Sequence record: NC_048195.1 | Strand: one strand, 5' to 3' | Source of the DNA: Escherichia phage vB_EcoM_WFC | Length of the DNA stretch: 64,000 bases | Shown: one piece after another, positions 7,497 to 60,017 of the stretch | How the letters are laid out: the number at the start of each line of letters is the position of its first letter | Numbering within the stretch: the stretch's first letter is position 1 | Translations under genes and position numbers: made by a program | The notes under the pieces: model-generated | Told to the model about the DNA's origin: nothing | Database searches by the model: none | Seen by the model: only the letters and a program-made list of their open reading frames with translations

Positions 7497-7760
7497 GACG
7501 TATCATACGTATCAAGTAAGTTATTGTTTTCAAAAGAATCTTACGGATGATACGGATGATACGCGTTGCCGCCGTACTATATAGGAATTCAAATAAATTA
7601 ATTTAAAATTATATATCTAATTTAATTTTATTTTTTTATAAACTCTTATATATGAAAAGTATCCGTATCATCCGTATCATCCGTAGCACACCAGTGATAG
7701 CGCGGCTTATACACCGATACGGATAAAAATACGCCTCATTTTATCCGTATCATCCGTATC
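7497..7760. repeat. iteron-like CCGTATCAT repeats in both orientations flanking an AT-rich core (region A)
   Basis: ACGTATCATACGTATCA (7497-7516), CTTACGGATGATACGGATGATACG (7540-7563), ATCCGTATCATCCGTATCATCCGTA (7661-7685), TATCCGTATCATCCGTATC (7742-7760); AT-rich core about 7575-7650. Homologous to region B at 60018-60347. Confidence 0.6.
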
Positions 7761-7818
7761 ACACTAATAAAGGCGCGGCTATATCGGTTGTTATACATAT
7801 TCAAACCATAATTATTGT

Positions 7819-47132: not shown

Positions 47133-47160
47133 TTGACTTTGTATCACTCAATATTATACT
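47133..47160 (+). promoter_or_regulatory. sigma70-like promoter for the + strand early/replication operon
   Basis: TTGACT (47133-47138), 16-nt spacer, TATACT (47155-47160), in the divergent intergenic region 47030-47189. Confidence 0.5.
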
Positions 47161-47189: not shown

Positions 47190-48272
47190 ATGGCTAGTTT
47201 AAGAGAAGAAGCAAAAATAATTGAAGAGTTTTTAACAGAACTCCAAAGAGGCATTCCAGAAGATGAGCGCGTCATGACGGTGTTTGCTCCTGAAGCAACG
47301 GTACAGACCGACGAGCGCGGCAAGAAGATTAACAGCAGCTTCTGGCCTAAGCCTTGGAAGTTGGGCAAGCCGCTCATGCAGCACCAAAACGGCTATGCTT
47401 GCATCAGTTCAATGCGTAAGTCTCCCAACCCAAAGACGGGTGAGATGCGATACTGGCGTACAGAGTCTGCCTTTGGTCACGGCATGGCGATGATGGTTGA
47501 TGACATCGGTCACGGTAAAGGGTCCAAAGGTGATTTAGATTTGGAATTCTTTTTCGAGCGACTGAAGCCGACTGTCATCGTCGAGACTTCACCGAACAAC
47601 CACCAGCTTTGGTACTTCTTTAAAGAACCGATTGACCATCTTATTCAGTTCAAAGCGTTCCTTGGGTCTTTCGTTAACATGGTACTCAAGAAGGGCGGCG
47701 ACAACACGATTAAAGACGTAACGCGCGTGGGTCGTGTTCCTGGGTGCATCAATAACAAGCGTGTGACTCACGACGGCCCCTATAAATATGTCGATGAGAA
47801 CGGCGACCCGTTCCGCTGCCGACTTGTCCATGCAGACTACTCCTTGCGCTACACCATCGAAGACATTTGTCAGGCATTTGGCTTTCACGTCGTCATGCCG
47901 CAAAAGCGTGAGATTCAAATTGACGTCGATGAATACAAGTATGATGCTGTTTGGTATAAAATAGCCCAGCAGATTCTAGCGCGCAACAAGATGGGTGAAG
48001 GGTCTGATGGCGACGTCATCGAGAATATGTCAGGCAAGTGTCGCATAATCTGTCCTTGGGGTGAAGAGCACACCAACGGCGACCCGTATGGCGCTTACTT
48101 TCGCGGCCCTATCCCTGGTGCAGAACATGAATTTGTGTTCGGTTGCGCCCACGACTGCCACCGGAAAGGGGAAGGCAAGAAAGGTTGGACTGCTTTTGTT
48201 GAAGCAATCGTCATGCCTTATATTGAGAATCAACTTGACATGATAAATCGTCGTGCAGGTGGCATAAAATAG
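47190..48272 (+). CDS. DNA primase-like protein (archaeo-eukaryotic primase / Prim-Pol-like) with C-terminal Cys/His cluster
   Basis: 360 aa; acidic MMVDDIGHG and ETSPNNHQLWYFF resemble AEP motifs; C-terminal CPWGEEH ... CAHDCH zinc-binding-like cluster. Confidence 0.55.
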   Translation: MASLREEAKIIEEFLTELQRGIPEDERVMTVFAPEATVQTDERGKKINSSFWPKPWKLGKPLMQHQNGYACISSMRKSPNPKTGEMRYWRTESAFGHGMAMMVDDIGHGKGSKGDLDLEFFFERLKPTVIVETSPNNHQLWYFFKEPIDHLIQFKAFLGSFVNMVLKKGGDNTIKDVTRVGRVPGCINNKRVTHDGPYKYVDENGDPFRCRLVHADYSLRYTIEDICQAFGFHVVMPQKREIQIDVDEYKYDAVWYKIAQQILARNKMGEGSDGDVIENMSGKCRIICPWGEEHTNGDPYGAYFRGPIPGAEHEFVFGCAHDCHRKGEGKKGWTAFVEAIVMPYIENQLDMINRRAGGIK

Positions 48273-48273
48273 T

Positions 48274-48301
48274 TTGCTTTTATTTTCATAGCAACTATAA
48301 T
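48274..48301 (+). promoter_or_regulatory. sigma70-like promoter candidate
   Basis: TTGCTT (48274-48279), 16-nt spacer, TATAAT (48296-48301). Confidence 0.4.
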
Positions 48302-48330
48302 CATTTTATGAACTGAAGCAGAGGTGATTC

Positions 48331-48477
48331 ATGCAAAGCGAAGAATTGAACATCGAGGTTGAATGTCTGTTAAAGTCGTTAGAACCTAAACCAGCAGAGC
48401 TTCCGACCCTTCAAGGAGTCATGGCTCACCATCAAGCGGCTGCGGCCAAACACTACTCTGAATTTGTTAAGGAATAA
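48331..48477 (+). CDS. small hypothetical protein (48 aa)
   Basis: GAGGTG RBS before ATG 48331; below the ORF-track size cutoff. Confidence 0.35.
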   Translation: MQSEELNIEVECLLKSLEPKPAELPTLQGVMAHHQAAAAKHYSEFVKE

Positions 48478-48479
48478 AA

Positions 48480-48770
48480 ATGAACGAACCAAAAATGATG
48501 ACCGTTGAAGAAGCACAAAAGCTTCGTGTTGAAAACGAGCTTAAGCTTGTCAACCAGATTCTCCCCTTGTTTGCAGGCTACGCAGTGGAGGAAGTTGTTG
48601 GGGCAATCCTTAACGTATCCACGCATGTCGCTATGAATCTTCAGGCAGAGCGATTCAACACGCTGCTGACTATTAAAGACCTTACAGTCAGTGCAACGTT
48701 CACCGTTGAGCCAGTCAATTTTGACGAAGCTTCAGCCGCGATTCAACAGCAAAGAGATCAAGAGGTGTAG
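48480..48770 (+). CDS. hypothetical protein (96 aa)
   Basis: Co-directional early array. Confidence 0.45.
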   Translation: MNEPKMMTVEEAQKLRVENELKLVNQILPLFAGYAVEEVVGAILNVSTHVAMNLQAERFNTLLTIKDLTVSATFTVEPVNFDEASAAIQQQRDQEV

Positions 48771-48771
48771 C

Positions 48772-49035
48772 ATGGGCGCTTTCCGTAACGAGTTCACCTG
48801 GAACGTTACCAGCAATCTCTCGACTTGTCCTAACTGTGCAAGCGATGTTATCAAGGTGCGGCAGCATCGCAACGCGGAGGAAGGTGCCTGGGAAGATGGC
48901 GACCTTGTAGAGTGCCAGTGCTGTTCTCATGAAGGTGTTGTTGAGCTTCAAGCTGGCGAAGGTTGTCCACCAGCAGAACGTACAGCACGCGTTGAATGGG
49001 ATGCAACAGACTCCATTGGTGATCCTCAACAGTAA
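48772..49035 (+). CDS. small zinc-ribbon protein (87 aa)
   Basis: CPNC ... CQCC Cys pairs; ATG 48772 just after the upstream stop. Confidence 0.45.
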   Translation: MGAFRNEFTWNVTSNLSTCPNCASDVIKVRQHRNAEEGAWEDGDLVECQCCSHEGVVELQAGEGCPPAERTARVEWDATDSIGDPQQ

Positions 49036-49053
49036 ATTTAGGTATAGATACTT

Positions 49054-49158
49054 ATGAAAGCCGTAAAGAAATACACATTAATCATTTCCCTTGTCATCAT
49101 CCTGGGGCTATTATATGTATTGGATATGGCATATTATTTGGCAGGGGTGAGTGGATGA
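49054..49158 (+). CDS. small hydrophobic peptide (34 aa)
   Basis: MKAVKKYTLIISLVIILGLLYVLDMAYYLAGVSG; its stop overlaps the next start (ATGA coupling). Confidence 0.35.
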   Translation: MKAVKKYTLIISLVIILGLLYVLDMAYYLAGVSG

Positions 49159-49445
49159 ATATTGTAATTCTTTATGGTGAAAATATCAGCGATGACGACA
49201 TCGAAGTTGCCGTTGATGTTTACGGTATCGATGAGGTGAAACGTGTTGAAGAAATTAGTGGCGCAAATCTCAATGAGATTGTCAAAGAAGCTGGCTGCCC
49301 TTCGGAAGAGATTCTGGTGGTTACTAACGATGACCTGTCTTCTATGGATCATTTGCGCCGCATCTTCACCGATTGCCAATACCTTCATGCTGTTCAATCA
49401 GTAAACAAATTGAGAAAGGCATACGCCAACCAATTTCCTTGCTGA
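49155..49445 (+). CDS. hypothetical protein (96 aa)
   Basis: Co-directional early array. Confidence 0.45.
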   Translation: MNIVILYGENISDDDIEVAVDVYGIDEVKRVEEISGANLNEIVKEAGCPSEEILVVTNDDLSSMDHLRRIFTDCQYLHAVQSVNKLRKAYANQFPC

Positions 49446-49495
49446 TAGTTCACCAGTTATATTGCTTTAAATTGAGTTTTACTATATTAATATAC

Positions 49496-49520
49496 AACGC
49501 CAGATTTCTGGCGTTTATTT
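49496..49520 (+). terminator. intrinsic terminator or attenuator
   Basis: AACGCCAG ATTT CTGGCGTT hairpin followed by TTTATTT. Confidence 0.55.
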
Positions 49521-49581
49521 ACCGCACCCTGAAAGGATATATCCATGCAACAATATAACAAAGCCGTATCAGGAGGATTAA

Positions 49582-51252
49582 ATGTCAATTAATAATGACA
49601 ATCTTCCAGAGGATACAGGTGATGAATTTGGTGCAATCTTTGACGAAATTCAAGATGCAGGCGTTTCGGAAGAAATGCAGGCAGCAGAGCAGCAAGGCAC
49701 CAGAGCTAAAATCAGCCTTCAACATAAAGCTGTTGAAAAAGATTCAGAGCGCATGGAATGCTACGGTGAAGAAGACTTGGTTGAAAGAGCACGCTTGCTC
49801 GCCTCACTTCAGGTAATCAAGTTCCCTCACTACAAGCCTACCAAAGATGACTTCGTTCTACAGGCAGACCGGACGAGTGACATGAACCGTTATGCGGTTT
49901 TCGACGCGTTGTTTGATAAGGGAAGTGGCGTTGTTCCATTCCCTCACAAAGATACTTTTCGTGGGCGCTTAGTCGACCATCGCGGCGAAACATTCACTGA
50001 CCGTACCTTGGAAGTCACAGAGATAGTTGCCGCTGTCGACGCAGCAGGGTTGTCCAACCCAAACTCACGTCAGGTCGCTCAATCCTATAAGGAATGGGCC
50101 ATGCGTTATCAGCGCGACGACCTGATGGACTTCTTCTACAAGAAGCTGCCTGAATGGGACGGTACTGCGCGCATCGAGAAATACCTTATCGAGCTATTCC
50201 GACCGTTCGATACAGAGTTAAACCGACAAATCGGTGTGTATTTTTGGCTATCGCTCTACAACCGCCTGACCAACCCTGGCTGTCAAGCGCCAATCTCCAT
50301 CGCGCTCATCGGCGGCCAGAACGCAGGGAAGAGTTATTTTAGCAAGCTGCTTTGCGAAGCTATTATGAACGACCGCCACGCAACACCGATTCCGTTGAAC
50401 TTAGCCGCGCAAAACTTCAACCCGTTCTTGCGAGCTATCACGGGTCGCTCGATTATCGCGAACGTCGGCGAGATGACAGGCTTTAAAAAGGCCGACATCG
50501 AAAACATGAAAGCATTCCTGACTAAGACGGAAGATGACCTGGACTTCAAATTTGAAGATACGCAGGTTAAACCACGCCAGTGGATTGCTATCATGGACGG
50601 CAACGAATACGCAGGCATGCAGCGTGATGACACGGGCAACCGTCGTGTGTATCCTATCTTTGTTGGCCAACTCGCTGACAAGGACGGGCAACCGAACTGG
50701 TCGAAAGACTTCCAAGCTGACCTTTCCACTTTGAAAGAAGACGTTTGGCAGCTTATGGCTGAGTGCGCTGCGTGGATGGAGAAGCACGGCGAAGCAGGCT
50801 ATAACGCGTTTGTTGGTGAAACATCTCGCATGCTTACTGAGTTCAGTAAAAACGAAATGGAACGCGCTCGCGGCGTTATCCGTGATGAGATGGTTGATAA
50901 CGACCTTGTTGAAGTCGTCATCACCGCGCCTTATGACCGACATCACAGCGGACGCTGGCACATCACCAGTGGTGCTATTGCTATGGGATTCAGAGCGAAG
51001 TGCGGCAAGTCGCCTTTCTCTCGTACCCTTGCGCCACACATGTCGAAGCTTGGTTTTGAGCCTGCGACCTATCGCAACCAGCGCGGTTACTTTACGCCGC
51101 TGATTAAGAATGAAGCAGGGGAATACATTTCTGATTTGATGACCATCTTAGCGTATCTTATCCGCGATGAGTCTGACCCTGAAGATATTGAATTCTTGAA
51201 GAAGGTTATTGAGCGTAAACGTTCTTTGGGAAGAGATAAGGATGAATTCTGA
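49582..51252 (+). CDS. VirE-family P-loop NTPase (primase-associated helicase-like)
   Basis: 556 aa; Walker A IGGQNAGKS; AGGAGG RBS; position next to the primase gene. Confidence 0.7.
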   Translation: MSINNDNLPEDTGDEFGAIFDEIQDAGVSEEMQAAEQQGTRAKISLQHKAVEKDSERMECYGEEDLVERARLLASLQVIKFPHYKPTKDDFVLQADRTSDMNRYAVFDALFDKGSGVVPFPHKDTFRGRLVDHRGETFTDRTLEVTEIVAAVDAAGLSNPNSRQVAQSYKEWAMRYQRDDLMDFFYKKLPEWDGTARIEKYLIELFRPFDTELNRQIGVYFWLSLYNRLTNPGCQAPISIALIGGQNAGKSYFSKLLCEAIMNDRHATPIPLNLAAQNFNPFLRAITGRSIIANVGEMTGFKKADIENMKAFLTKTEDDLDFKFEDTQVKPRQWIAIMDGNEYAGMQRDDTGNRRVYPIFVGQLADKDGQPNWSKDFQADLSTLKEDVWQLMAECAAWMEKHGEAGYNAFVGETSRMLTEFSKNEMERARGVIRDEMVDNDLVEVVITAPYDRHHSGRWHITSGAIAMGFRAKCGKSPFSRTLAPHMSKLGFEPATYRNQRGYFTPLIKNEAGEYISDLMTILAYLIRDESDPEDIEFLKKVIERKRSLGRDKDEF

Positions 51253-51899
51253 TGAATAAAGCAATCAACATCGCTAAATTCTTTCAACATCTTGGTGAAC
51301 TGAACAAAGAGAGTGACGTTCACGGAGAAGAAATGAACCGGATGATTTCAACCGTGTTGCGTGGCTTTGGTTATGATAAGGACTCCATCACTTGCAAGCG
51401 CACAAAGCTTGTCGATGAGTCTTATCTTTACTACGTAGAGCTGCGCATTGGTAAAGATGTAATGATCATTGACCCTAAACTGGAAGGTGCGCACTGTTTT
51501 GGCGCTCATCCTCGTGCGAGTGAATTCAAGGGTCGCGGTCGCAACCGAATCCAGAAACTTGATGACGCAGGCGACTTGAACATTGCCATGTTCCTTAAAG
51601 AGTTCCTTGCGCTACCGAAGGTTGCATCATCCACTGGTCGTGATGACCCTTGCAAGATTGGATTCCGAACTAAAGATTTGCGCAATGCGCTACGCAAGAA
51701 GGGATTTGTGCCTTCTTATGACAATGTCGCCGCGCTGATGGCTTCAATGGAGGAAGCTGAAGCGATGGACAAGGTGCGCGGCTATTTCCTGAATACAGGC
51801 TTCACCATGTATGAATGGCACACGAAGGGATTGACTGTCGCCGACTTCATCTATTCATTAGAGCAGAAGTATGTACGCAATATGCAGGCCACAGGATAA
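51252..51899 (+). CDS. hypothetical protein (215 aa)
   Basis: Start overlaps the upstream stop. Confidence 0.45.
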   Translation: MNKAINIAKFFQHLGELNKESDVHGEEMNRMISTVLRGFGYDKDSITCKRTKLVDESYLYYVELRIGKDVMIIDPKLEGAHCFGAHPRASEFKGRGRNRIQKLDDAGDLNIAMFLKEFLALPKVASSTGRDDPCKIGFRTKDLRNALRKKGFVPSYDNVAALMASMEEAEAMDKVRGYFLNTGFTMYEWHTKGLTVADFIYSLEQKYVRNMQATG

Positions 51900-51938
51900 T
51901 TATCATCAAAATATTTGCTTTTCTGACGAGGTGATATT

Positions 51939-52163
51939 ATGATTAATTTAGACAGGATTGAGTTAGCACTTAGTACCTTAATCAAATATTACCAGTTTGC
52001 GTTTAAGGCTAGTTTGTTTGGCTTGTTCAATCCTCATCAAGCAGCAAAGGCGAGAAGCAATGCCAACCGCCTGCGCTGTACTGGTATAGTTATCCATGAC
52101 CGGATATTGACAGAGGGTAGATTCAGCCATGAATACACAGGGGAGAATAACAAATCAACGTAG
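51939..52163 (+). CDS. hypothetical protein (74 aa)
   Basis: GAGGTG RBS; early array. Confidence 0.4.
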   Translation: MINLDRIELALSTLIKYYQFAFKASLFGLFNPHQAAKARSNANRLRCTGIVIHDRILTEGRFSHEYTGENNKST

Positions 52164-52338
52164 GGCTTTACAAGTCCTCATCCACTACCTGTCACGCCTT
52201 TATCCAACGGCGCACGAGCAGAATCCAGCAACTGGTCATCTGTTTAAGCGCCGTAACCTTTCGCTAAAAACATTCGCTTTAATCCAATATGACCGCTACC
52301 TGGACGGGCGCTACTGCGGCCCGAAGGATTCTCTATGA
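52129..52338 (+). CDS. hypothetical protein (69 aa)
   Basis: Early array; overlaps upstream ORF by 35 nt, so the start is uncertain. Confidence 0.35.
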   Translation: MNTQGRITNQRRALQVLIHYLSRLYPTAHEQNPATGHLFKRRNLSLKTFALIQYDRYLDGRYCGPKDSL

Positions 52339-52613
52339 TTAATACATACAAAGTATTCTTTGTCAAGTGCACATCATCTATTGATGACCAATTTACTGCT
52401 GGCAAGAATTATCCCGTGATTTCTGAGTCAAGGCTAGATATAATCTTGAATGATCATGAAATCTATGAGCCGATGCCAGCGACTGCGTTTGATGTTATCG
52501 GTCACGTTCGGATTAAGACTAATGTTGATACGATGCATGATCCGTTGTTCAAGAAGCAAATCAAGAATGCCATGCAAGACTTTTGCGCGGCTATGTTTAA
52601 ATATTATAAGTGA
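52335..52613 (+). CDS. hypothetical protein (92 aa)
   Basis: ATGA start/stop coupling with the upstream ORF. Confidence 0.45.
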   Translation: MINTYKVFFVKCTSSIDDQFTAGKNYPVISESRLDIILNDHEIYEPMPATAFDVIGHVRIKTNVDTMHDPLFKKQIKNAMQDFCAAMFKYYK

Positions 52614-52620
52614 GTTGAAG

Positions 52621-52842
52621 ATGAGCAAGAAAACCCTTAAGGCTGGCGACCGTATCCGTTGGATGTCAGGACAGAATATGCGCGCAGGCACCATCCTTGA
52701 GCTGGATGAATACCTTACCGATTCGCGCGGTCGCAATCATTACCGTGTCAGAATCGATACAGTAAAAGAAGATGACAAGTCACTTGTTGGTGAAGTGGTC
52801 ATCGTTACTCCACGTCAAATCAAGGCGGCTTGTGAAGCATGA
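52621..52842 (+). CDS. hypothetical protein (73 aa)
   Basis: Internal ATG 52621 chosen because the ORF-track start would lie inside the previous gene. Confidence 0.4.
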   Translation: MSKKTLKAGDRIRWMSGQNMRAGTILELDEYLTDSRGRNHYRVRIDTVKEDDKSLVGEVVIVTPRQIKAACEA

Positions 52843-52994
52843 ATAAATTTCAGTTCAACGATAACAAGATCAGTAAAGCAGACGCAATCAAGCAGCTTCG
52901 TCGCGTACTTGAAGCCAGTGGCCATACGAAAGAGCGTGCACGCGTCTTGGCCAAAGAACATTATAAACGTTTTGTGTCACAAATCAGAGGTTAA
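52839..52994 (+). CDS. small hypothetical protein (51 aa)
   Basis: ATGA coupling with the upstream stop; below the ORF-track cutoff. Confidence 0.35.
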   Translation: MNKFQFNDNKISKADAIKQLRRVLEASGHTKERARVLAKEHYKRFVSQIRG

Positions 52995-52996
52995 TT

Positions 52997-53491
52997 ATGA
53001 TCATCCATCGCCCTTTAATGTTAAAGAAAGAAGAGTGTGAAGAAATCTTACACGCATTGAGACGTGCAGAAGCAGATGTTAACCTTCGAATAAAGGTAAG
53101 AGACTTCATTATGAAGCAGTTCGAAAATGATGATGTTGACTATGCCATTGATGAATTGCTGAATCGCAACGTCAAAGGCGCAACAAGACCCATTTGCCAT
53201 CAATCACGTTGCGCAAGAGTCCCTATTCAAAATTATGTTCATAAAAAGCCGCGCCTTAAACCTGTTCCGGCTGATAAAATAGAAGTCGGTGATGTTATCG
53301 TCTGCGTCTATTACGGCAGTCAGATTTTCAATGCCGTTGTGGTAAGGCGATACAGCATAAACGGTTGCCAATACATGGAAGTGACAAACGCAAAGAAAGA
53401 ACCTGGCAGCTTGAACGTGGCTTACGCATTAAGGGAATTCAGCAGTCCTTCTTGCATTCTTTATAAGGTACTCGACCATGGCTCATGTTAA
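52997..53491 (+). CDS. hypothetical protein (164 aa)
   Basis: Early array. Confidence 0.45.
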   Translation: MIIHRPLMLKKEECEEILHALRRAEADVNLRIKVRDFIMKQFENDDVDYAIDELLNRNVKGATRPICHQSRCARVPIQNYVHKKPRLKPVPADKIEVGDVIVCVYYGSQIFNAVVVRRYSINGCQYMEVTNAKKEPGSLNVAYALREFSSPSCILYKVLDHGSC

Positions 53492-53825
53492 AGACGAAGT
53501 GCTGTTTGGCGCAGAGATTAAGAAACGTGTCAGAGAAATGGCAGGAGAAGAAAGAATGAAGCCGTTGCGAAAAGGTTTTGATCACATCAATGGCGTATCC
53601 GGCACGAAGGAGATGGGCGTGTTGGTGAAAGACATCCGCGTTGGCGATGTCATGGTCATCGACCGACAAGCGCGAGTCGTTATCCAGGTGCAACCTAACG
53701 ATGATGAAGGATGTGTCCTATTGAAGCTGAAGAAGCTTTCATCCAGCCCAGCGAAAGCAGTCATCAAGAAGGTGTGGCCTGAAGGATTACGCAAACTCAT
53801 CCGTCGACCCGTGGAGAATGCATGA
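53478..53825 (+). CDS. hypothetical protein (115 aa)
   Basis: Early array. Confidence 0.45.
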   Translation: MAHVKDEVLFGAEIKKRVREMAGEERMKPLRKGFDHINGVSGTKEMGVLVKDIRVGDVMVIDRQARVVIQVQPNDDEGCVLLKLKKLSSSPAKAVIKKVWPEGLRKLIRRPVENA

Positions 53826-54061
53826 TGGAAGATTATATTAACGCGATGTATATGGCATTCTATGTCGTGCAACTTCCCAATGGCGCGGTATTTTATGGCG
53901 AGTATACCTTTGACGTTCAATACGACGTTTCAGAGCGTACAGTGTTGACAAGGGAGTTGATTGCGGACCTTAAGGACGACATCAAACGCGTCGCGCGGCA
54001 GCAGTTCAATTTGGATGACACAGTCATCGTTCGAATTACCGGAATAACAGAGGTGCAGTGA
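53822..54061 (+). CDS. hypothetical protein (79 aa)
   Basis: Start/stop overlap with neighbours. Confidence 0.45.
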   Translation: MMEDYINAMYMAFYVVQLPNGAVFYGEYTFDVQYDVSERTVLTRELIADLKDDIKRVARQQFNLDDTVIVRITGITEVQ

Positions 54062-54390
54062 TGACCCGTGATCAGATACTCGCCGCGCATGAGCGTGAGA
54101 AGGTGAAAGAGATTTGTAAAAGGCACAAATCATTTGCTGACTCTTATGTGTTCTTAAAGTCTTGCATCAAACAAAACGCAAGGATGGATAACACTGTATT
54201 GACATTCAACCTTTTGTCTAACGGAGCAAAGCTTGATGCGATATGCGGGTGCAGAATTGCCAGCATGACGTTTGAACGAGGTGCTCACAAAGACTCTTTC
54301 TTCTATCAATTCTCCCATCGGACGGGTGATACAAAGATAACAAGGACGCGGCACGAGATAGAGATTGACCTGCTCCACTATGTAAAATGA
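54058..54390 (+). CDS. hypothetical protein (110 aa)
   Basis: Start/stop overlap with neighbours. Confidence 0.45.
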   Translation: MMTRDQILAAHEREKVKEICKRHKSFADSYVFLKSCIKQNARMDNTVLTFNLLSNGAKLDAICGCRIASMTFERGAHKDSFFYQFSHRTGDTKITRTRHEIEIDLLHYVK

Positions 54391-54408
54391 ATATCAAAAA
54401 GGTGATTT

Positions 54409-54603
54409 ATGAGTGTTAAACTAGACATACAGAAAACCCTTGACAAAGCTGCTGCAATAAAGAACTTCATGGATTGTTACGCCAGTTGCACGCTTTATGG
54501 AAGCGTTCCAAACGGTGATGTGAGACCGGAAAGCATGCTTGAGTGGCTTGTTGAGCACCGTTACATAATCGACATAGTTGATGAATACATAAAGCAGAAA
54601 TGA
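54409..54603 (+). CDS. hypothetical protein (64 aa)
   Basis: AAGGTGA RBS before the ATG. Confidence 0.45.
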   Translation: MSVKLDIQKTLDKAAAIKNFMDCYASCTLYGSVPNGDVRPESMLEWLVEHRYIIDIVDEYIKQK

Positions 54604-54611
54604 ATATCAAA

Positions 54612-54656
54612 AAGGTGAGCTAAATGCTTGCCTTTTCTTTTATCAATACTTATACT
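54612..54656 (+). promoter_or_regulatory. hairpin-plus-promoter cassette (copy 1)
   Basis: Hairpin AAGGTGAGC/TAAAT/GCTTGCCTT (54612-54634) with T-run; TTGCCT (54628-54633), 17-nt spacer, TATACT (54651-54656). Confidence 0.45.
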
Positions 54657-54688
54657 CTTTTCATCAAGACGAACAAGTGAGGTGAATT

Positions 54689-55006
54689 ATGATTTACTTA
54701 GGAATGGACGAAGATGCGCACAAAGACCTTTCAAGGGTGCCAAACGTTAAGTTAGACACAGCTGTACACATCAAGCCTTGGCCAATCGCCCACCCTGACG
54801 TAGTTGTACCAGTCGCGCCTGGCACGCGTTACGTGGCCATTGATGACGACGGAGTAATTCACTGTTATTCGGAAAAACCAAAGTATATAAAGCAATATCA
54901 CGGTTGGTTTTTGGACGAGCGTGCAATGGCGCGTTACTGCGGCGAAGTCGGTCTGGAAGGTTGGAGCTTCAAGGCTAGTGAATCGTGTGTCGAGGTGCAA
55001 TTATGA
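54689..55006 (+). CDS. hypothetical protein (105 aa)
   Basis: GTGAGGTGA RBS; early array. Confidence 0.45.
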   Translation: MIYLGMDEDAHKDLSRVPNVKLDTAVHIKPWPIAHPDVVVPVAPGTRYVAIDDDGVIHCYSEKPKYIKQYHGWFLDERAMARYCGEVGLEGWSFKASESCVEVQL

Positions 55007-55221
55007 ATGCCGCGCTGGGTAAGTTGTCTTTCAATAAACGCAACGAGCTGCGCATGGTGTCGCGCTTTCAACAAACGTATTCATCACTAATAAAGATTAC
55101 AAATAAGGCCGACTCTAGAGCTTGCCCTAAAGAAGAATGGGAAGCATTGAACGAGCGTCGTAAACAATTACAACATGCTGCATTCAAGCTGCAGCAATAT
55201 GCTATGGAGTATGCAAAATGA
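55003..55221 (+). CDS. hypothetical protein (72 aa)
   Basis: ATG 55003 preceded by GAGGTG. Confidence 0.4.
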   Translation: MNAALGKLSFNKRNELRMVSRFQQTYSSLIKITNKADSRACPKEEWEALNERRKQLQHAAFKLQQYAMEYAK

Positions 55222-55502
55222 AGATGCAAAGATGTCCCCATTGCTTGTCCACGATGCGGCTTACTGCTGAAGAATATTTACATCACGTTAACGTTTGTGA
55301 GGCTAATCCTGAAAACTCGACGCGTTACTATTATCATTATCACGCAGAAGCGGAAGATGGATCAGGCGCAACAGGCATCGTCACCACTAAAGAAATGGTG
55401 ATAACTAAAAAGGCATATGAAAGCTTGCTGGAGACGATTAAAGAAGTTTCTGGCAAAGAAATCACCTGTATTAAATCTTTATCTTTCTTGCACGAGGTAT
55501 AA
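55218..55502 (+). CDS. small Cys/His zinc-finger-like protein (paralog a)
   Basis: 94 aa; N-terminus MKMQRCPHCLSTMRLTAEEYLHHVNVCEANPENS. Confidence 0.45.
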   Translation: MKMQRCPHCLSTMRLTAEEYLHHVNVCEANPENSTRYYYHYHAEAEDGSGATGIVTTKEMVITKKAYESLLETIKEVSGKEITCIKSLSFLHEV

Positions 55503-55503
55503 A

Positions 55504-55887
55504 ATGAGAATGAAGCGTTGCCCTTACTGCCACGATGTGGTGCACCTTCCACACGAAGAGTTTGTGCACCACATGACTAACTGTGATAAGAATCCTAATA
55601 GCGAAAGCCAACTTGAAGAAAGAATGTTCTTGGTGTCATTCAAAGCTTCTGCTTATGAAGTGCAACGTTCTTACGGCGCACCAAGTACGATTTACTGTCC
55701 AACAACATTGAGAAGCGACATCGACTCAATTCAGCTTGCGGCCTGGATTAACGTTAAGGAAGGAATCACGCCGCACTTTATTGCGCGCATCCAATCTCAG
55801 ATTCTACAAATCAAGCGCGAATACAACCGTGACATCACTGAAGTGAAGGTGTTGTCTATCACACCGATGAATAAGGAGTTGCCGTGA
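55504..55887 (+). CDS. small Cys/His zinc-finger-like protein (paralog b)
   Basis: 127 aa from ATG 55504; N-terminus MRMKRCPYCHDVVHLPHEEFVHHMTNCDKNPNSES matches the adjacent paralog. Confidence 0.45.
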   Translation: MRMKRCPYCHDVVHLPHEEFVHHMTNCDKNPNSESQLEERMFLVSFKASAYEVQRSYGAPSTIYCPTTLRSDIDSIQLAAWINVKEGITPHFIARIQSQILQIKREYNRDITEVKVLSITPMNKELP

Positions 55888-56144
55888 ACAAGGGTCCGAT
55901 GACTAAGTTAGCCGTTGCCGCGCGGAAGCTTCGACAAGCCGTTAATGGGTCGCGGCCCGTGGTGTTAACACTCGACGATGCAAAGGCACTGGTAGAGCTA
56001 CTCGACGAGCACAACCGACGCAAGAATCTGGAGAACACATTACGCTGGCGCGTTACTCCGAAAGGGCGGGAGAGCGAGAAGAAAGCTTACTTGCGACGCA
56101 AACTAAGGTCAGTCGGCCTCCACGAAGAGGCGAAGAATATTTAA
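55884..56144 (+). CDS. hypothetical protein (86 aa)
   Basis: GTG start preceded by AAGGAG. Confidence 0.4.
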   Translation: MNKGPMTKLAVAARKLRQAVNGSRPVVLTLDDAKALVELLDEHNRRKNLENTLRWRVTPKGRESEKKAYLRRKLRSVGLHEEAKNI

Positions 56145-56150
56145 TTCAAA

Positions 56151-56194
56151 AAGGTGAGCTAAATGCTTGCCTTTTTATTTGCCTGTATTATACT
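56151..56194 (+). promoter_or_regulatory. hairpin-plus-promoter cassette (copy 2)
   Basis: Same hairpin as copy 1 (56151-56173); TTGCCT (56167-56172), 16-nt spacer, TATACT (56189-56194). Confidence 0.45.
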
Positions 56195-56215
56195 TAGTTC
56201 ATCAAGCAAAGGAGA

Positions 56216-56524
56216 ATGATTATGAGTTACGACGAAAGGTTTGGCAGAAGCGGATTATTTCATGACGCTGTACACAAAGACAGCAAAGATGTTGTCTGCG
56301 CATTCAAGGTTGATTCTTACGGTACACTGAAACCTTTTAAGGTCGGCGAAACATACAAGCTGTTTCACGGCTGGTTGACGCGTCGCAACAACTTGCCTGA
56401 CATGGAAGTCTGGTGGATAGAATACAAGGGTCAGGCTCATCGTTGCAAGGTTGTAGAGGTGCGCGGCGTGGAATACTATCAATCTGTTATCAGCGGCTTT
56501 GTTTTTAAAGAGGGTGAGCTATGA
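56216..56524 (+). CDS. hypothetical protein (102 aa)
   Basis: AAGGAG RBS; early array. Confidence 0.45.
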   Translation: MIMSYDERFGRSGLFHDAVHKDSKDVVCAFKVDSYGTLKPFKVGETYKLFHGWLTRRNNLPDMEVWWIEYKGQAHRCKVVEVRGVEYYQSVISGFVFKEGEL

Positions 56525-56826
56525 GTACAGAAGCGATGAAGAAAAAGATTTTGAACGCTTTGCAAGAAGCCGTGAACTGTGGTGCAATTAAAACCTTTAC
56601 TGAAAGGCAAGTCGGTGAGGTGACGGTGCACGGATTCAATAATAACAAAAACGGAATTGCTGCCATAATGCTGTTGAAGAACAGCGATGACACATTCATC
56701 ATTTACGTCGGCGGATATGAGCTTATCGTTGATGATTTGTTCATCACTTGCGCTGACGGCCTTAACCCAATGTTAACGTTCGAGCGGCGCGGCATCCGTG
56801 TTGCAACGTTTGGAGGGAAGTTATGA
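56521..56826 (+). CDS. hypothetical protein (101 aa)
   Basis: AGGGTGAG RBS; N-terminal AVNCGAI segment shared with the 57004 protein. Confidence 0.45.
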   Translation: MSTEAMKKKILNALQEAVNCGAIKTFTERQVGEVTVHGFNNNKNGIAAIMLLKNSDDTFIIYVGGYELIVDDLFITCADGLNPMLTFERRGIRVATFGGKL

Positions 56827-56987
56827 CATCAAATCTTAAAGCCCGTTTATTATTCATCAAGCCGCATGTGCCGTATAAGATTAGTAAGCGCACCTGGCTT
56901 AACATTTACAACCGCAGCGGCGACCGTTGTTTGTACAAGGCAAAGCGGCGCAAGAAGGTATATTCTTACACAACATCAATCAAATAA
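56823..56987 (+). CDS. small basic protein (54 aa)
   Basis: ATGA coupling with the upstream stop; Lys/Arg-rich. Confidence 0.35.
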   Translation: MTSNLKARLLFIKPHVPYKISKRTWLNIYNRSGDRCLYKAKRRKKVYSYTTSIK

Positions 56988-57003
56988 ATAGGATAAGACA
57001 ACA

Positions 57004-57507
57004 ATGAAAATCGAACAACTCGAAGCAGTACTGGAAATGGCTGTAAAGGCTGGCGCAATCAGAAGCTATAGCCGCGAGAAGTCGGAAAACGATATGGTGT
57101 TTTGTCGCAACTTCTATATCGTCGGCAACCTTAACGACCACTACACCATCGAGTGGTATATTAACATGATGACGCTTAAGTCGCGCACCATGGAGCTTTG
57201 GTGCGATGACATTTGCTTATCCAACACCCATCCATCCTACGACGTTGCATTGGCATTCTATTACGGAAGCCGTCAACCTGTCGCCCACATCGGTGAGAAG
57301 CATGAGCATCTTAAGGCGCGACCAGAGGAATCAATGGAAGGCTGGATTGAATGGGCTGGAGGAAAGAATCCGGTGCCTGGTAAGAAGGTCATGTTGATGT
57401 GGAGGAATGAAGAAAAGTCGTCGTATTCGTCCAATTCAGAGGGATGGCTATGGCATCACAACGGAAGCGTTTATGACATCATAAAGTATCGCGTCGTGGA
57501 GGAATGA
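57004..57507 (+). CDS. hypothetical protein (167 aa) with C-terminal WxGGxNPVPGK module
   Basis: C-terminal EGWIEWAGGKNPVPGKKV ... YRVVEE shared with the 58791 protein. Confidence 0.45.
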   Translation: MKIEQLEAVLEMAVKAGAIRSYSREKSENDMVFCRNFYIVGNLNDHYTIEWYINMMTLKSRTMELWCDDICLSNTHPSYDVALAFYYGSRQPVAHIGEKHEHLKARPEESMEGWIEWAGGKNPVPGKKVMLMWRNEEKSSYSSNSEGWLWHHNGSVYDIIKYRVVEE

Positions 57508-57848
57508 TGGAAGAACAAGAAGGCCGTGAGCTGACATTCGATGAACAGATGGCCGAACTTCAGCGCACATCGCCGCTGCGCGGTAAGGTTGTTGACATTG
57601 AGGCGAGCGAATCCAATCTCACCAAGTGGCGGCTCAAGTGCACCAGCACAAGCAAGGATATGTTAAGCTTCAAAGTCGGTCAGACTTATTTGCTTTATGA
57701 GGCAAAAGGACTTATTATTGATGGAAGGCAAATTGTCTTCACGGTTGTCAACGGCATGCGTTGGTTCGTGAAGCGTGATGTCGAGGGACGTGACATGTTT
57801 GTCGCAGGCTTTCCAGAAGCAAGATTCCAATTGGAGAAGGTTAAATGA
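57504..57848 (+). CDS. hypothetical protein (114 aa)
   Basis: Start overlaps the upstream stop. Confidence 0.45.
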   Translation: MMEEQEGRELTFDEQMAELQRTSPLRGKVVDIEASESNLTKWRLKCTSTSKDMLSFKVGQTYLLYEAKGLIIDGRQIVFTVVNGMRWFVKRDVEGRDMFVAGFPEARFQLEKVK

Positions 57849-58171
57849 AATTGAAATGGTACGTGGACCCTGAGCCGACAGGCTCATACAGGTCATTCCA
57901 ACGTCGCGGCTGGCCGATTTGTTACAGCGGCAATCCCGATAAAGAAGACTGCGAGATGATCGCCGCGATAGTAAGTCTTAACCATGACGGCTATGAAGGC
58001 CACTACGCGAGAGCAACCAACCTTCGGCTCAAGGTGCGCATCCATTTCAAGGTCGCAGGCAAGGACCGCACCGGACTCTCCAAGGAAGAGTTCAGCAGCA
58101 TTGCCGAAGCAAAGGCATGGCTCAAGGCATTCTACAAGGCCAATCCTAAATTTTATCCAGTCAAGGAATAA
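57845..58171 (+). CDS. hypothetical protein (108 aa)
   Basis: Start overlaps the upstream stop. Confidence 0.45.
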   Translation: MKLKWYVDPEPTGSYRSFQRRGWPICYSGNPDKEDCEMIAAIVSLNHDGYEGHYARATNLRLKVRIHFKVAGKDRTGLSKEEFSSIAEAKAWLKAFYKANPKFYPVKE

Positions 58172-58174
58172 GTG

Positions 58175-58579
58175 ATGAATCAACATAAAGAACGTTTAGA
58201 AGAACTGGTGCGCGGCGAGCTTTACGGCGGCGATGACTCACTGTTCAAGTTAAGCGATGCGGTTGTCAACGAGTACGTGCACGGACTGGTCGACCCGCAA
58301 GGCCGTTTCCCTTATCCGCGAGATTACTGCAACGACATCACAGCAGCTTGGCCCGTGATGCTTGCCAATGATGTCAGCGTCGTGCGAAACTGCGGCAACA
58401 AAGAACCAAACCGTGACTACTCGGCTTACGTCGCGTTGGACGCCATGGACATTGCATCATTTAAATGCAGCGGCAGCCACGACAACCCGTTACGCGCCGC
58501 TATGCATGTAATCATTAAGTTGCACGTGAGCAAGGGCGAAGGTGCAGTGGCAACCGTTTATGAGAAGGTGAAATTATGA
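58175..58579 (+). CDS. hypothetical protein (134 aa)
   Basis: First ATG taken (ORF track starts at GTG 58172). Confidence 0.45.
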   Translation: MNQHKERLEELVRGELYGGDDSLFKLSDAVVNEYVHGLVDPQGRFPYPRDYCNDITAAWPVMLANDVSVVRNCGNKEPNRDYSAYVALDAMDIASFKCSGSHDNPLRAAMHVIIKLHVSKGEGAVATVYEKVKL

Positions 58580-58794
58580 CCGATAAACAATACGCAGTCG
58601 GGCAACGTGACATCGAGCAACTCGACGAGGGCGGCTATTATACTCGCCACATCTATGCAATGACGCATGAAGGACTCTACAGCAAGTCGGACATTGCCGC
58701 TGAACTGGCCCATCGTGACTTGCAAATTGACCTTCTCAAGATAGAAGTGCAAAACTTACGCAACACCCTGTTAAATACCTGGAGCTTAAAATGA
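58576..58794 (+). CDS. hypothetical protein (72 aa)
   Basis: GAAGGTG RBS. Confidence 0.45.
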   Translation: MTDKQYAVGQRDIEQLDEGGYYTRHIYAMTHEGLYSKSDIAAELAHRDLQIDLLKIEVQNLRNTLLNTWSLK

Positions 58795-59192
58795 TCAATC
58801 GATTTAACTGCATCGTCAACAAGGGGATGGCGGTCAATGAGGATGGTCCTTGGATTCACTATGAGGACTATGAATCACTGCTCAAGCTTAATGAGTCGCT
58901 AACAAAAGAGATTGAGCAATACCGCGAGCGCATCAAAGCCGCTGAAGATGTTATCAAGCTTTTTAGCGAGGCTGTTGAGAAATACAAGGAGCGCAACGTA
59001 CCGATTAAGGAGGAAGCGTGGACCGTGTGGTTTGGTGGTGAGAATCCGGTGCCTGGGAAGATGGTTGAGTTTGAATTACTCAACGGTTATAAATCAAAAG
59101 GTGCTGTTCCTTCGGATAGTTTGACATGGGATAAAGTCACAAGCCCGACTGGTGCAAAGATTGTTGCTTATCGGGTCGTTAAGGAGGGGTGA
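58791..59192 (+). CDS. hypothetical protein (133 aa) with C-terminal WxGGxNPVPGK module
   Basis: GGAG RBS; C-terminal WTVWFGGENPVPGKMV ... YRVVKEG. Confidence 0.45.
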   Translation: MINRFNCIVNKGMAVNEDGPWIHYEDYESLLKLNESLTKEIEQYRERIKAAEDVIKLFSEAVEKYKERNVPIKEEAWTVWFGGENPVPGKMVEFELLNGYKSKGAVPSDSLTWDKVTSPTGAKIVAYRVVKEG

Positions 59193-59725
59193 TGGGTAAC
59201 GATGCAGGATGGGGCAAGCCGCGATACTCAAAACTTGCCCACTACTTTGACAACGGCGAGCAAATCAGCTTGTGCGGTAAATTCAACAAAGGCAATACAG
59301 AGTTGACCGATGCTCAAGAAATGGAATCAAGTTTTACAATTGGTGATTGCTCTAAGTGCAGAAAGGCATTATATGAGTTATTAACTCTAAGGGGATTGAA
59401 AGCGGCAAAATCAAGGGATGAATGGGTCATCAACGTCTGTGAAGGGAATCCAGAATTAATGGATGAATTGCTGAAAACAGATGCCGTTAATGCCATTTTT
59501 AAAAGGCATTATAAAACTTGTATGCGTTACAAGATGAATGATAATATTATTTTTATGGTATTATCTTATTCAAGGAGCACAATGGACGTCAAAAAGCTTC
59601 GACAATATCGTCACAAGGTAATGTGTGAATTGCGCCGTTTAGGAGTGACTGTTGATAATAATGTCATTAAAACGGAGTTAAAGAAGCGTGATAAAAGGAA
59701 TGGTGACTGGAAGGTCAGCAGATAA
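59192..59725 (+). CDS. hypothetical protein (177 aa)
   Basis: AAGGAGG RBS; last gene of the early array. Confidence 0.45.
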   Translation: MGNDAGWGKPRYSKLAHYFDNGEQISLCGKFNKGNTELTDAQEMESSFTIGDCSKCRKALYELLTLRGLKAAKSRDEWVINVCEGNPELMDELLKTDAVNAIFKRHYKTCMRYKMNDNIIFMVLSYSRSTMDVKKLRQYRHKVMCELRRLGVTVDNNVIKTELKKRDKRNGDWKVSR

Positions 59726-60017
59726 AGAACGTTGATTTGTGTGTTTTGAAGAATGGAATGTGTGCAATGGGTCGCTTTATGCGGCCTTTTGTTGTTTGGG
59801 TCGTGTTTTGCGATGGAATAATTATGAGGTTGTGTTTTATTTATTAATTGTGCGGAAATATTTAGAAATATATATAAACAGGATTGTTAATATTTTAATA
59901 GTGTATGGCTATTGGTCCGTGGTGTTCGTTAGATTCTATCTATGGATTGGATTTTCTTGGGTCGTGAAACGTGGTTTTGAACACATTTGATACGCCTAAA
60001 ATACGGTTAAAAATTAA

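Follow-up and report, generated by a model that had tools for sequence, protein, structure and literature searches.

A small module shared by two accessory proteins of Escherichia phage vB_EcoM_WFC belongs to a large phage domain family and behaves as an optional, recombining cassette

The 64,000-nucleotide stretch of Escherichia phage vB_EcoM_WFC analysed here (NC_048195.1; the whole stretch is referred to as the window) contains two small genes, designated A and B, whose products begin differently and end alike, which raises the question of whether one domain has been joined to unrelated proteins and what it might do there. A sequence-only reading of the window had noted the common ending, of the type WxGGxNPVPGK, and had ascribed it to domain shuffling among early genes. 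Both open reading frames (ORFs) were found on the + strand as described, with the quoted end peptides correct. The explanation favoured here, at a rough probability of 0.6, is that the ending is an autonomous domain of a large family, carried as an optional and recombining cassette, with a presumed binding or adaptor role.

The likeness of the two C-termini was confirmed by BLASTP with compositional adjustment: 24 of 58 positions were identical (41%; A residues 112–167 against B residues 75–132), with E = 2e-9 in the pairwise comparison. In an all-versus-all alignment of the 29 proteins of the gene cluster (406 pairs), which had been proposed as a check, the A–B pair was returned at E = 6e-8. 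When each module was searched with phmmer against the 923 six-frame ORFs of the window, the sole match was the other copy (E about 1e-7; next match E = 0.75); the window contains exactly two copies. Beyond the module, A and B could not be aligned, as the sequence-only reading had stated for the N-terminal halves, and the N-parts belong to different PHROGs. On the DNA level, the repeat between the two genes was limited to a stretch of 54 nt with 76% identity, including an exact 16-mer, AGAATCCGGTGCCTGG, which encodes NPVPG (Table 1). Shared module and shuffling thus stood, and a third element of that reading did not: the N-terminus of A had been likened to that of the product of 56521–56826, for which BLASTP gave E = 11 pairwise and E = 0.26 all-versus-all, and hhalign of the family alignments gave a probability of 13.8% over 21 residues of one helix.

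Full-length A (40 homologues in the alignment) was predicted by AlphaFold2 as two domains with a mean predicted local distance difference test (pLDDT) score of 83.8, and a disordered linker at residues 101–111 was placed between the N-domain and the module. In the family alignment of A, the linker region showed high column entropy as well as indels, and naturally truncated A proteins end there. PHROG 21861, a profile of 104 positions, matched A residues 1–104 end to end (E = 6.4e-54), so that the N-domain is a member of this family. The module alone (72 diverse homologues) was predicted as a small beta-rich fold with pLDDT 88.9. Homologues of gene A numbered 53, in Wifcevirus-type contigs of about 68 kb; those of gene B numbered 105, with lengths of 119–231 aa and the module in all of them. 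The N-region of B gave weak matches typical of coiled-coil sequences (Rz-like spanin, E = 0.006; DUF5886, E = 0.007) and may form a coiled coil, judging from its sequence.

The search for the module in other phages, also proposed beforehand, showed that its scope had been underestimated, since it is a very large phage family and not a peculiarity of two genes. An exhaustive profile search retrieved 1,456 representatives of 50% identity clusters at E ≤ 1e-3, 86 of them at E ≤ 1e-10, and an iterated hidden Markov model (HMM) of about 56 match positions recovered module A at E = 1e-25 and module B at E = 1e-26. Among the best 145 representatives, one copy per protein was counted in 74, two in 51, three in 13 and four in 5. 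The module may constitute the whole protein (57–72 aa) or lie at the N-terminus, in the middle or at the C-terminus. From 240 non-redundant instances, with a mean net charge of −2.9, the signature G-W-I-x-W-x-G-G-x-[N/C]-P-V ... V-x-V-x-x-R-x-G ... [A/S]-x4-W-x-H ... D-I-[I/V]-A-Y-R-V-V was derived, in which aromatic, Gly, Pro or aliphatic residues occupy most of the best-conserved positions. W5, W8, G10, G11, P14, W40, Y52 and R53 are present in both modules of the window. Relative to the profile, the module B subtype swaps three conserved polar positions (R25 to L, H42 to K, D48 to K), and this joint loss suggests that the three residues interact or form one structural unit.

Using Foldseek against BFVD, the same fold was found in uncharacterised proteins from phages of Edwardsiella, Erwinia, Rhizobium, Sinorhizobium, Aeromonas, Agrobacterium, Caulobacter, Xanthomonas and Iodobacter, and tblastn matches were obtained in rV5-like, phiM12-like, Caulobacter and Klebsiella phages. 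A genome scan with a narrower module pattern returned only three loci, one of them in a Brevundimonas chromosome, where the copy has phage-type methyltransferases and an HNH endonuclease as neighbours, in what looks like a prophage. Recurrent fusion partners were DUF3310 (5 proteins), dGTP_diPhyd_N (4) and DUF6378 (4), and the PHROG matches among module proteins include 'nucleotide kinase' and dATP/dGTP pyrophosphohydrolase families. Other domains carried the module at either of their ends, and the DUF3310-like domain can have one to three modules on either side.

The family is absent from curated domain databases, large (about 1,500 diverged clusters) and widespread in phages. No domain of Pfam-A or NCBIfam covered the module in A or B, 72 diverse modules gave scattered chance matches only (E ≥ 0.03) against curated domain databases, and the ten largest module-bearing proteins had no match in Pfam. 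PADLOC, run on 144 representatives, reported a match to HamB for one of the 144 and none via the module, and no description of the module was found in the literature searched. A word-indexed search with a two-sequence module profile retrieved two proteins only; full-length queries and the exhaustive search were productive. Among the PHROG matches, the label 'endolysin; inhibits RNA polymerase' was set aside as unconfirmed, since a T7 lysozyme probe had no match among the retrieved proteins.

In Wifcevirus proteins, the module is a C-terminal cassette that can be present or absent. It is placed after a disordered linker in A and after an unrelated N-region in B, and it is gained, lost, duplicated in tandem and replaced by other alleles, with diverged cores passing from phage to phage. 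Among gene A orthologues, the mean pairwise identity was 89% in the N-domain and 42% in the module core (residues 127–158; minimum 14%), with 79% in the 5′ flank and 94% in the 3′ flank of the module. In gene A and gene B alike, the core occurs as discrete types that include indels. Gene A without a module was found in AV128 and Mansfield, where the product has 108 aa and ends with EHLKEKVE before the stop, and in P0157 and P0158; all four end just after EHLKE. Tandem module doublets were found at the B locus (P0005, P0011, P0043, P0070, P0071 and P0076; also, for example, in ECO71P1, 198 aa). Ten further B-locus homologues (P0053, P0055, P0063, P0067, P0069, P0087, P0091, P0095, P0096 and P0104; 180–231 aa) are extended at the N-terminus by a segment of about 50–90 residues with the motif EVKTYAVNCNDAWL, which shows additional modular variation at this locus. 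In nine genomes, one A-type was found with three different B-types, so that the two loci assort independently. Within one module type, the pairwise ratio of nonsynonymous to synonymous substitution rates (dN/dS) was 0.03–0.46, with nothing to indicate positive selection. The module is thus a functional domain under constraint, and old alleles distributed through recombination, not rapid point mutation, account for the differences between types.

The conserved ends of the cassette, conserved as DNA too, act as recombination points. Within one genome, the two copies behave as direct repeats whose recombination removes the four intervening genes and forms new fusions. The protein P0128 starts with the A N-domain and 5′ flank, and its subsequent core and tail are 100% identical to those of the B-locus protein P0057. 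In its contigs, from two independent samples, the four genes between A and B are gone. The fusion gene aligns with gene A over nucleotides 1–377 and with gene B over nucleotides 333–513; the overlap (333–377) places the crossover in the conserved 5′ flank. A gene conversion between the loci, which was the first impression of P0128, was rejected, as its contigs show a deletion fusion. In P0001 (70 aa), the first six codons of the gene of the 57845 type (MKLKWY) are fused to the module of B, which results in an almost free-standing module. The domain shuffling proposed by the sequence-only reading is therefore borne out in genomes, where the homologous domain sits on unrelated N-parts, the A N-domain occurs alone, and the module occurs alone, duplicated and re-fused. 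An older similarity of 58–71% between A-locus and B-locus cores hints at an earlier exchange of cores between the loci.

As to function, a non-catalytic binding or adaptor domain is proposed tentatively, at somewhat less than even odds. This proposal follows from three properties: framework residues predominate among the best-conserved positions, the middle varies strongly, and any position in the protein as well as many partners are tolerated. Accordingly worded as a mechanism, the invariant Trp/Tyr/Gly/Pro framework would hold the fold, the variable middle of about 30 residues would set the binding target, probably a host or phage protein, and the N-terminal partner would supply the other activity.

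Several points weigh against this account. Its functional part is a deduction throughout. The polar residues R25, H42, D48 and R53 are also well conserved and could represent a common ligand site instead of framework. As the pairwise dN/dS values gave no positive selection, the core could owe its diversity to ancient neutral divergence, reshuffled by recombination, and not to selection for specificity. P0128 and P0001 are deletion fusions and not gene conversions, and an exchange of cores between A and B is suggested merely by the similarities given above. Finally, the family was assembled from database hits that carried neither annotation nor genomic context, so that it may not be confined to phages.

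A more specific version, which we hold with little confidence, describes the module as a plug-in part, specific to phages, that sets the specificity of intracellular accessory proteins and is swapped via its conserved flanks. The fixed Trp/Gly/Pro framework would then show a variable face of about 30 residues to differing host proteins, or to defence proteins encoded by other phages and prophages, and phages would re-arm their effectors by exchanging cassette alleles through the flanks. If true, the module would be an intracellular counterpart of tail-fibre tip swapping. In E. coli K-12, cryptic prophages block Wifceviruses (PMC11990801), and the plug-in version, if true, might bear on this block.

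About as doubtful as this version is a domain with a conserved ligand, in which three Trp and a Tyr together with the Arg/His/Asp/Arg set would form a pocket for one ligand (a nucleotide or other small molecule) and the middle would be unconstrained surface. Repeated fusion to nucleotide-metabolism domains (DUF3310/gp1.7-like, dATP/dGTP pyrophosphohydrolase, DUF6378) speaks for such a pocket, as does the retention of R25, H42, D48 and R53 in 63–92% of the 240 non-redundant instances. However, the module B type, common in B-locus homologues, does without R25, H42 and D48 and is nevertheless under purifying selection in relatives, which weakens the pocket for this subtype; moreover, most module proteins have no enzyme partner, and no match to a known ligand-binding fold was obtained.

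Less probable still is oligomerisation or scaffolding, by which the module would dimerise or multimerise its protein and tandem copies would mimic a dimer in one chain. Half of the representatives carry 2–4 tandem copies and the module is attached to either end of enzymes, as would be expected, but there is no obvious cause for a self-association surface to vary down to 14% identity among near-identical phages, and the coiled-coil-like N-region of B could already serve this purpose. A nucleic-acid-binding mini-domain, by which partners would be tethered to DNA or RNA, is considered highly improbable: the position of A and B within a replication-gene cluster, weak helix-turn-helix/ribbon-helix-helix or antitoxin partners in some relatives and conserved aromatics that could stack on bases would fit, yet the module is acidic. 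Chance or compositional similarity, or paralogy of whole genes with diverged N-termini, has the shortness of the match (58 aa) as the sole point in its favour and can be practically dismissed in view of E = 2e-9 under compositional adjustment, the 1,456 family members, the different PHROGs of the N-parts, the occurrence of the A N-domain alone, and a predicted boundary and linker that agree with a mobile domain.

Genes A and B both lie in a co-oriented cluster on the + strand (about 47190–59725), which is opened by replication genes (Table 1); the rest comprises about 25 small genes of unknown function. The DNA of the region is 90–95% identical to that of Wifcevirus myoviruses of E. coli and Shigella (for example vB_EcoM_SP13, F13, vB_Eco4M-7 and WFH). 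Just upstream of the primase gene, the region's best promoter-like site was located at 47133–47160 (TTGACT-16-TATACT, 10 of 12 matches), and a terminator-like hairpin, GC-rich and followed by a T-run, lies at 59769–59787 directly after the last gene of the cluster; taken together, the two are consistent with a single transcription unit of about 12.5 kb. Overall, the count of promoter-like sites was not above the shuffled expectation. Early expression of the cluster is plausible.

Table 1 Coordinates of the features discussed (window positions, except for the fusion variants, which are given with their own locus handles)
Feature	Position	Strand	Description
Gene A	57004..57507	+	ORF, 167 aa plus stop; N-domain, linker, module
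A N-domain, residues 1–100	57004..57303	+	one helix plus eight beta-strands, highly conserved
Disordered linker of A, residues 101–111 (domain boundary)	57304..57336	+	pLDDT below 50
Module copy A, residues 112–167	57337..57504	+	GWIEWAGGKNPVPGKKV ... DIIKYRVVEE
54-nt direct repeat copy 1, 5′ flank of module A	57336..57389	+	16-mer AGAATCCGGTGCCTGG at 57365-57380
Gene B	58791..59192	+	ORF, 133 aa plus stop; charged coiled-coil-like N-region, then module
Module copy B, residues 72–133	59004..59189	+	IKEEAWTVWFGGENPVPGKMV ... KIVAYRVVKEG; hmmsearch E = 1e-26
54-nt direct repeat copy 2, 5′ flank of module B	59012..59065	+	16-mer AGAATCCGGTGCCTGG at 59041-59056
Natural Wifcevirus variants with fusion genes	L013 3501-4013, L014 792-1304, L015 3501-3713		1–4 genes deleted by recombination; fusion genes of P0128 and P0001
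DNA primase	47190-48272	+	opens the cluster
Primase/helicase	49582-51252	+	same cluster, downstream of the primase

Further observations were made in the same cluster. An intergenic direct repeat of 35 nt (94% identical, + strand) occurs at 54607–54641 and 56146–56180. Both copies contain a hairpin, that of the first copy (54610–54636) being scored as terminator-like, and both overlap promoter-like TTGCCT...TATACT sites (54628–54656 and 56167–56194); the pair may represent a repeated regulatory element within the small-gene cluster. The adjacent small genes at 55218–55502 and 55504–55887 (+) have homologous N-termini of 36 residues, MKMQRCPHCLSTMRLTAEEYLHHVNVCEANPENS and MRMKRCPYCHDVVHLPHEEFVHHMTNCDKNPNSES, with 39% identity and E = 3.5e-9 in the all-versus-all comparison. 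This shared N-terminal part is unrelated to the WxGG module, and the C-terminal parts of the two proteins are unrelated. Its CPxC...HH...C pattern looks like a zinc finger, and the second gene probably starts at 55504, within the listed ORF 55417–55887. Elsewhere in the window, at 7661–7780 (+), a short run of 9-nt repeats of the ATCCGTATC type was found, with a related copy of 38 nt located 73 nt downstream.

The phenomenon is ordinary phage mosaicism; what is new is an undescribed, widespread domain family. As modular mosaicism is well known, the value of the result lies in the cataloguing of a domain and in hypotheses, not in a conceptual surprise. Most small accessory proteins of phages are unannotated, and a compact, confidently folding domain is now defined that merits a DUF-type entry, and the domains of two Wifcevirus proteins have been clearly delimited. 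The alleles and architectures that occur naturally (no, one or two modules, the module alone, the module re-fused) form a ready-made experiment for finding the binding target, and the fusion variants record, at nucleotide resolution, how a short conserved flank causes genes of a lytic phage to be lost and fused.

Among known families, PHROG 9174, 26870, 16943 and 11995, all of 'unknown function', matched module A with E = 1.8e-11 to 3e-4 and module B with E = 1.4e-7 to 5e-3, and phrog_9174 was matched by 141 of 144 family representatives. These PHROGs are whole-protein clusters without domain definition or functional annotation, in which the module is placed N-terminally (9174), C-terminally (16943 and 11995) or in the middle (26870). 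The T7 gp1.7-like or SaV-like DUF3310 proteins are linked to A and B through the same module attached elsewhere: DUF3310 is its recurrent partner in other phages and occurs in neither A nor B. DUF551 (PF04448) is a small domain of lambdoid prophage proteins, often located beside DUF550/dATP-dGTP pyrophosphohydrolase, and resembles the module in being small, phage-derived and provided with a common type of partner. This lead, taken from a marginal Foldseek match in BFVD (E = 0.048, template modelling score 0.51), was rejected for want of a sequence relationship: the 72 diverse modules had no match to DUF551 even at E ≤ 1, and hhalign of the module profile against the DUF551 protein YfdS of E. 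coli gave a probability of 0.04%, with a single-sequence template that leaves a very remote kinship possible.

A target of a diversity-generating retroelement was likewise rejected, as the sole DNA repeat between A and B is the conserved 5′ flank and not the variable core; indels and the replacement of whole segments also oppose this reading, for which a reverse transcriptase was not searched. The closer comparison is with mosaic exchange as known from the swapping of receptor-binding tips of phage tail fibres and from recombination at conserved boundaries in lambdoid phages. In Wifceviruses themselves, the tail fibres have conserved N-termini that bear receptor-binding domains which vary greatly and are transferred horizontally (PMC11990801). 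A and B share with this system a conserved N-part, a variable, exchangeable C-part and recombination at short conserved flanks; unlike tail fibres, the carriers are small non-structural proteins of a replication and accessory cluster, and the exchanged unit comprises just about 30 residues within a fold of 58.
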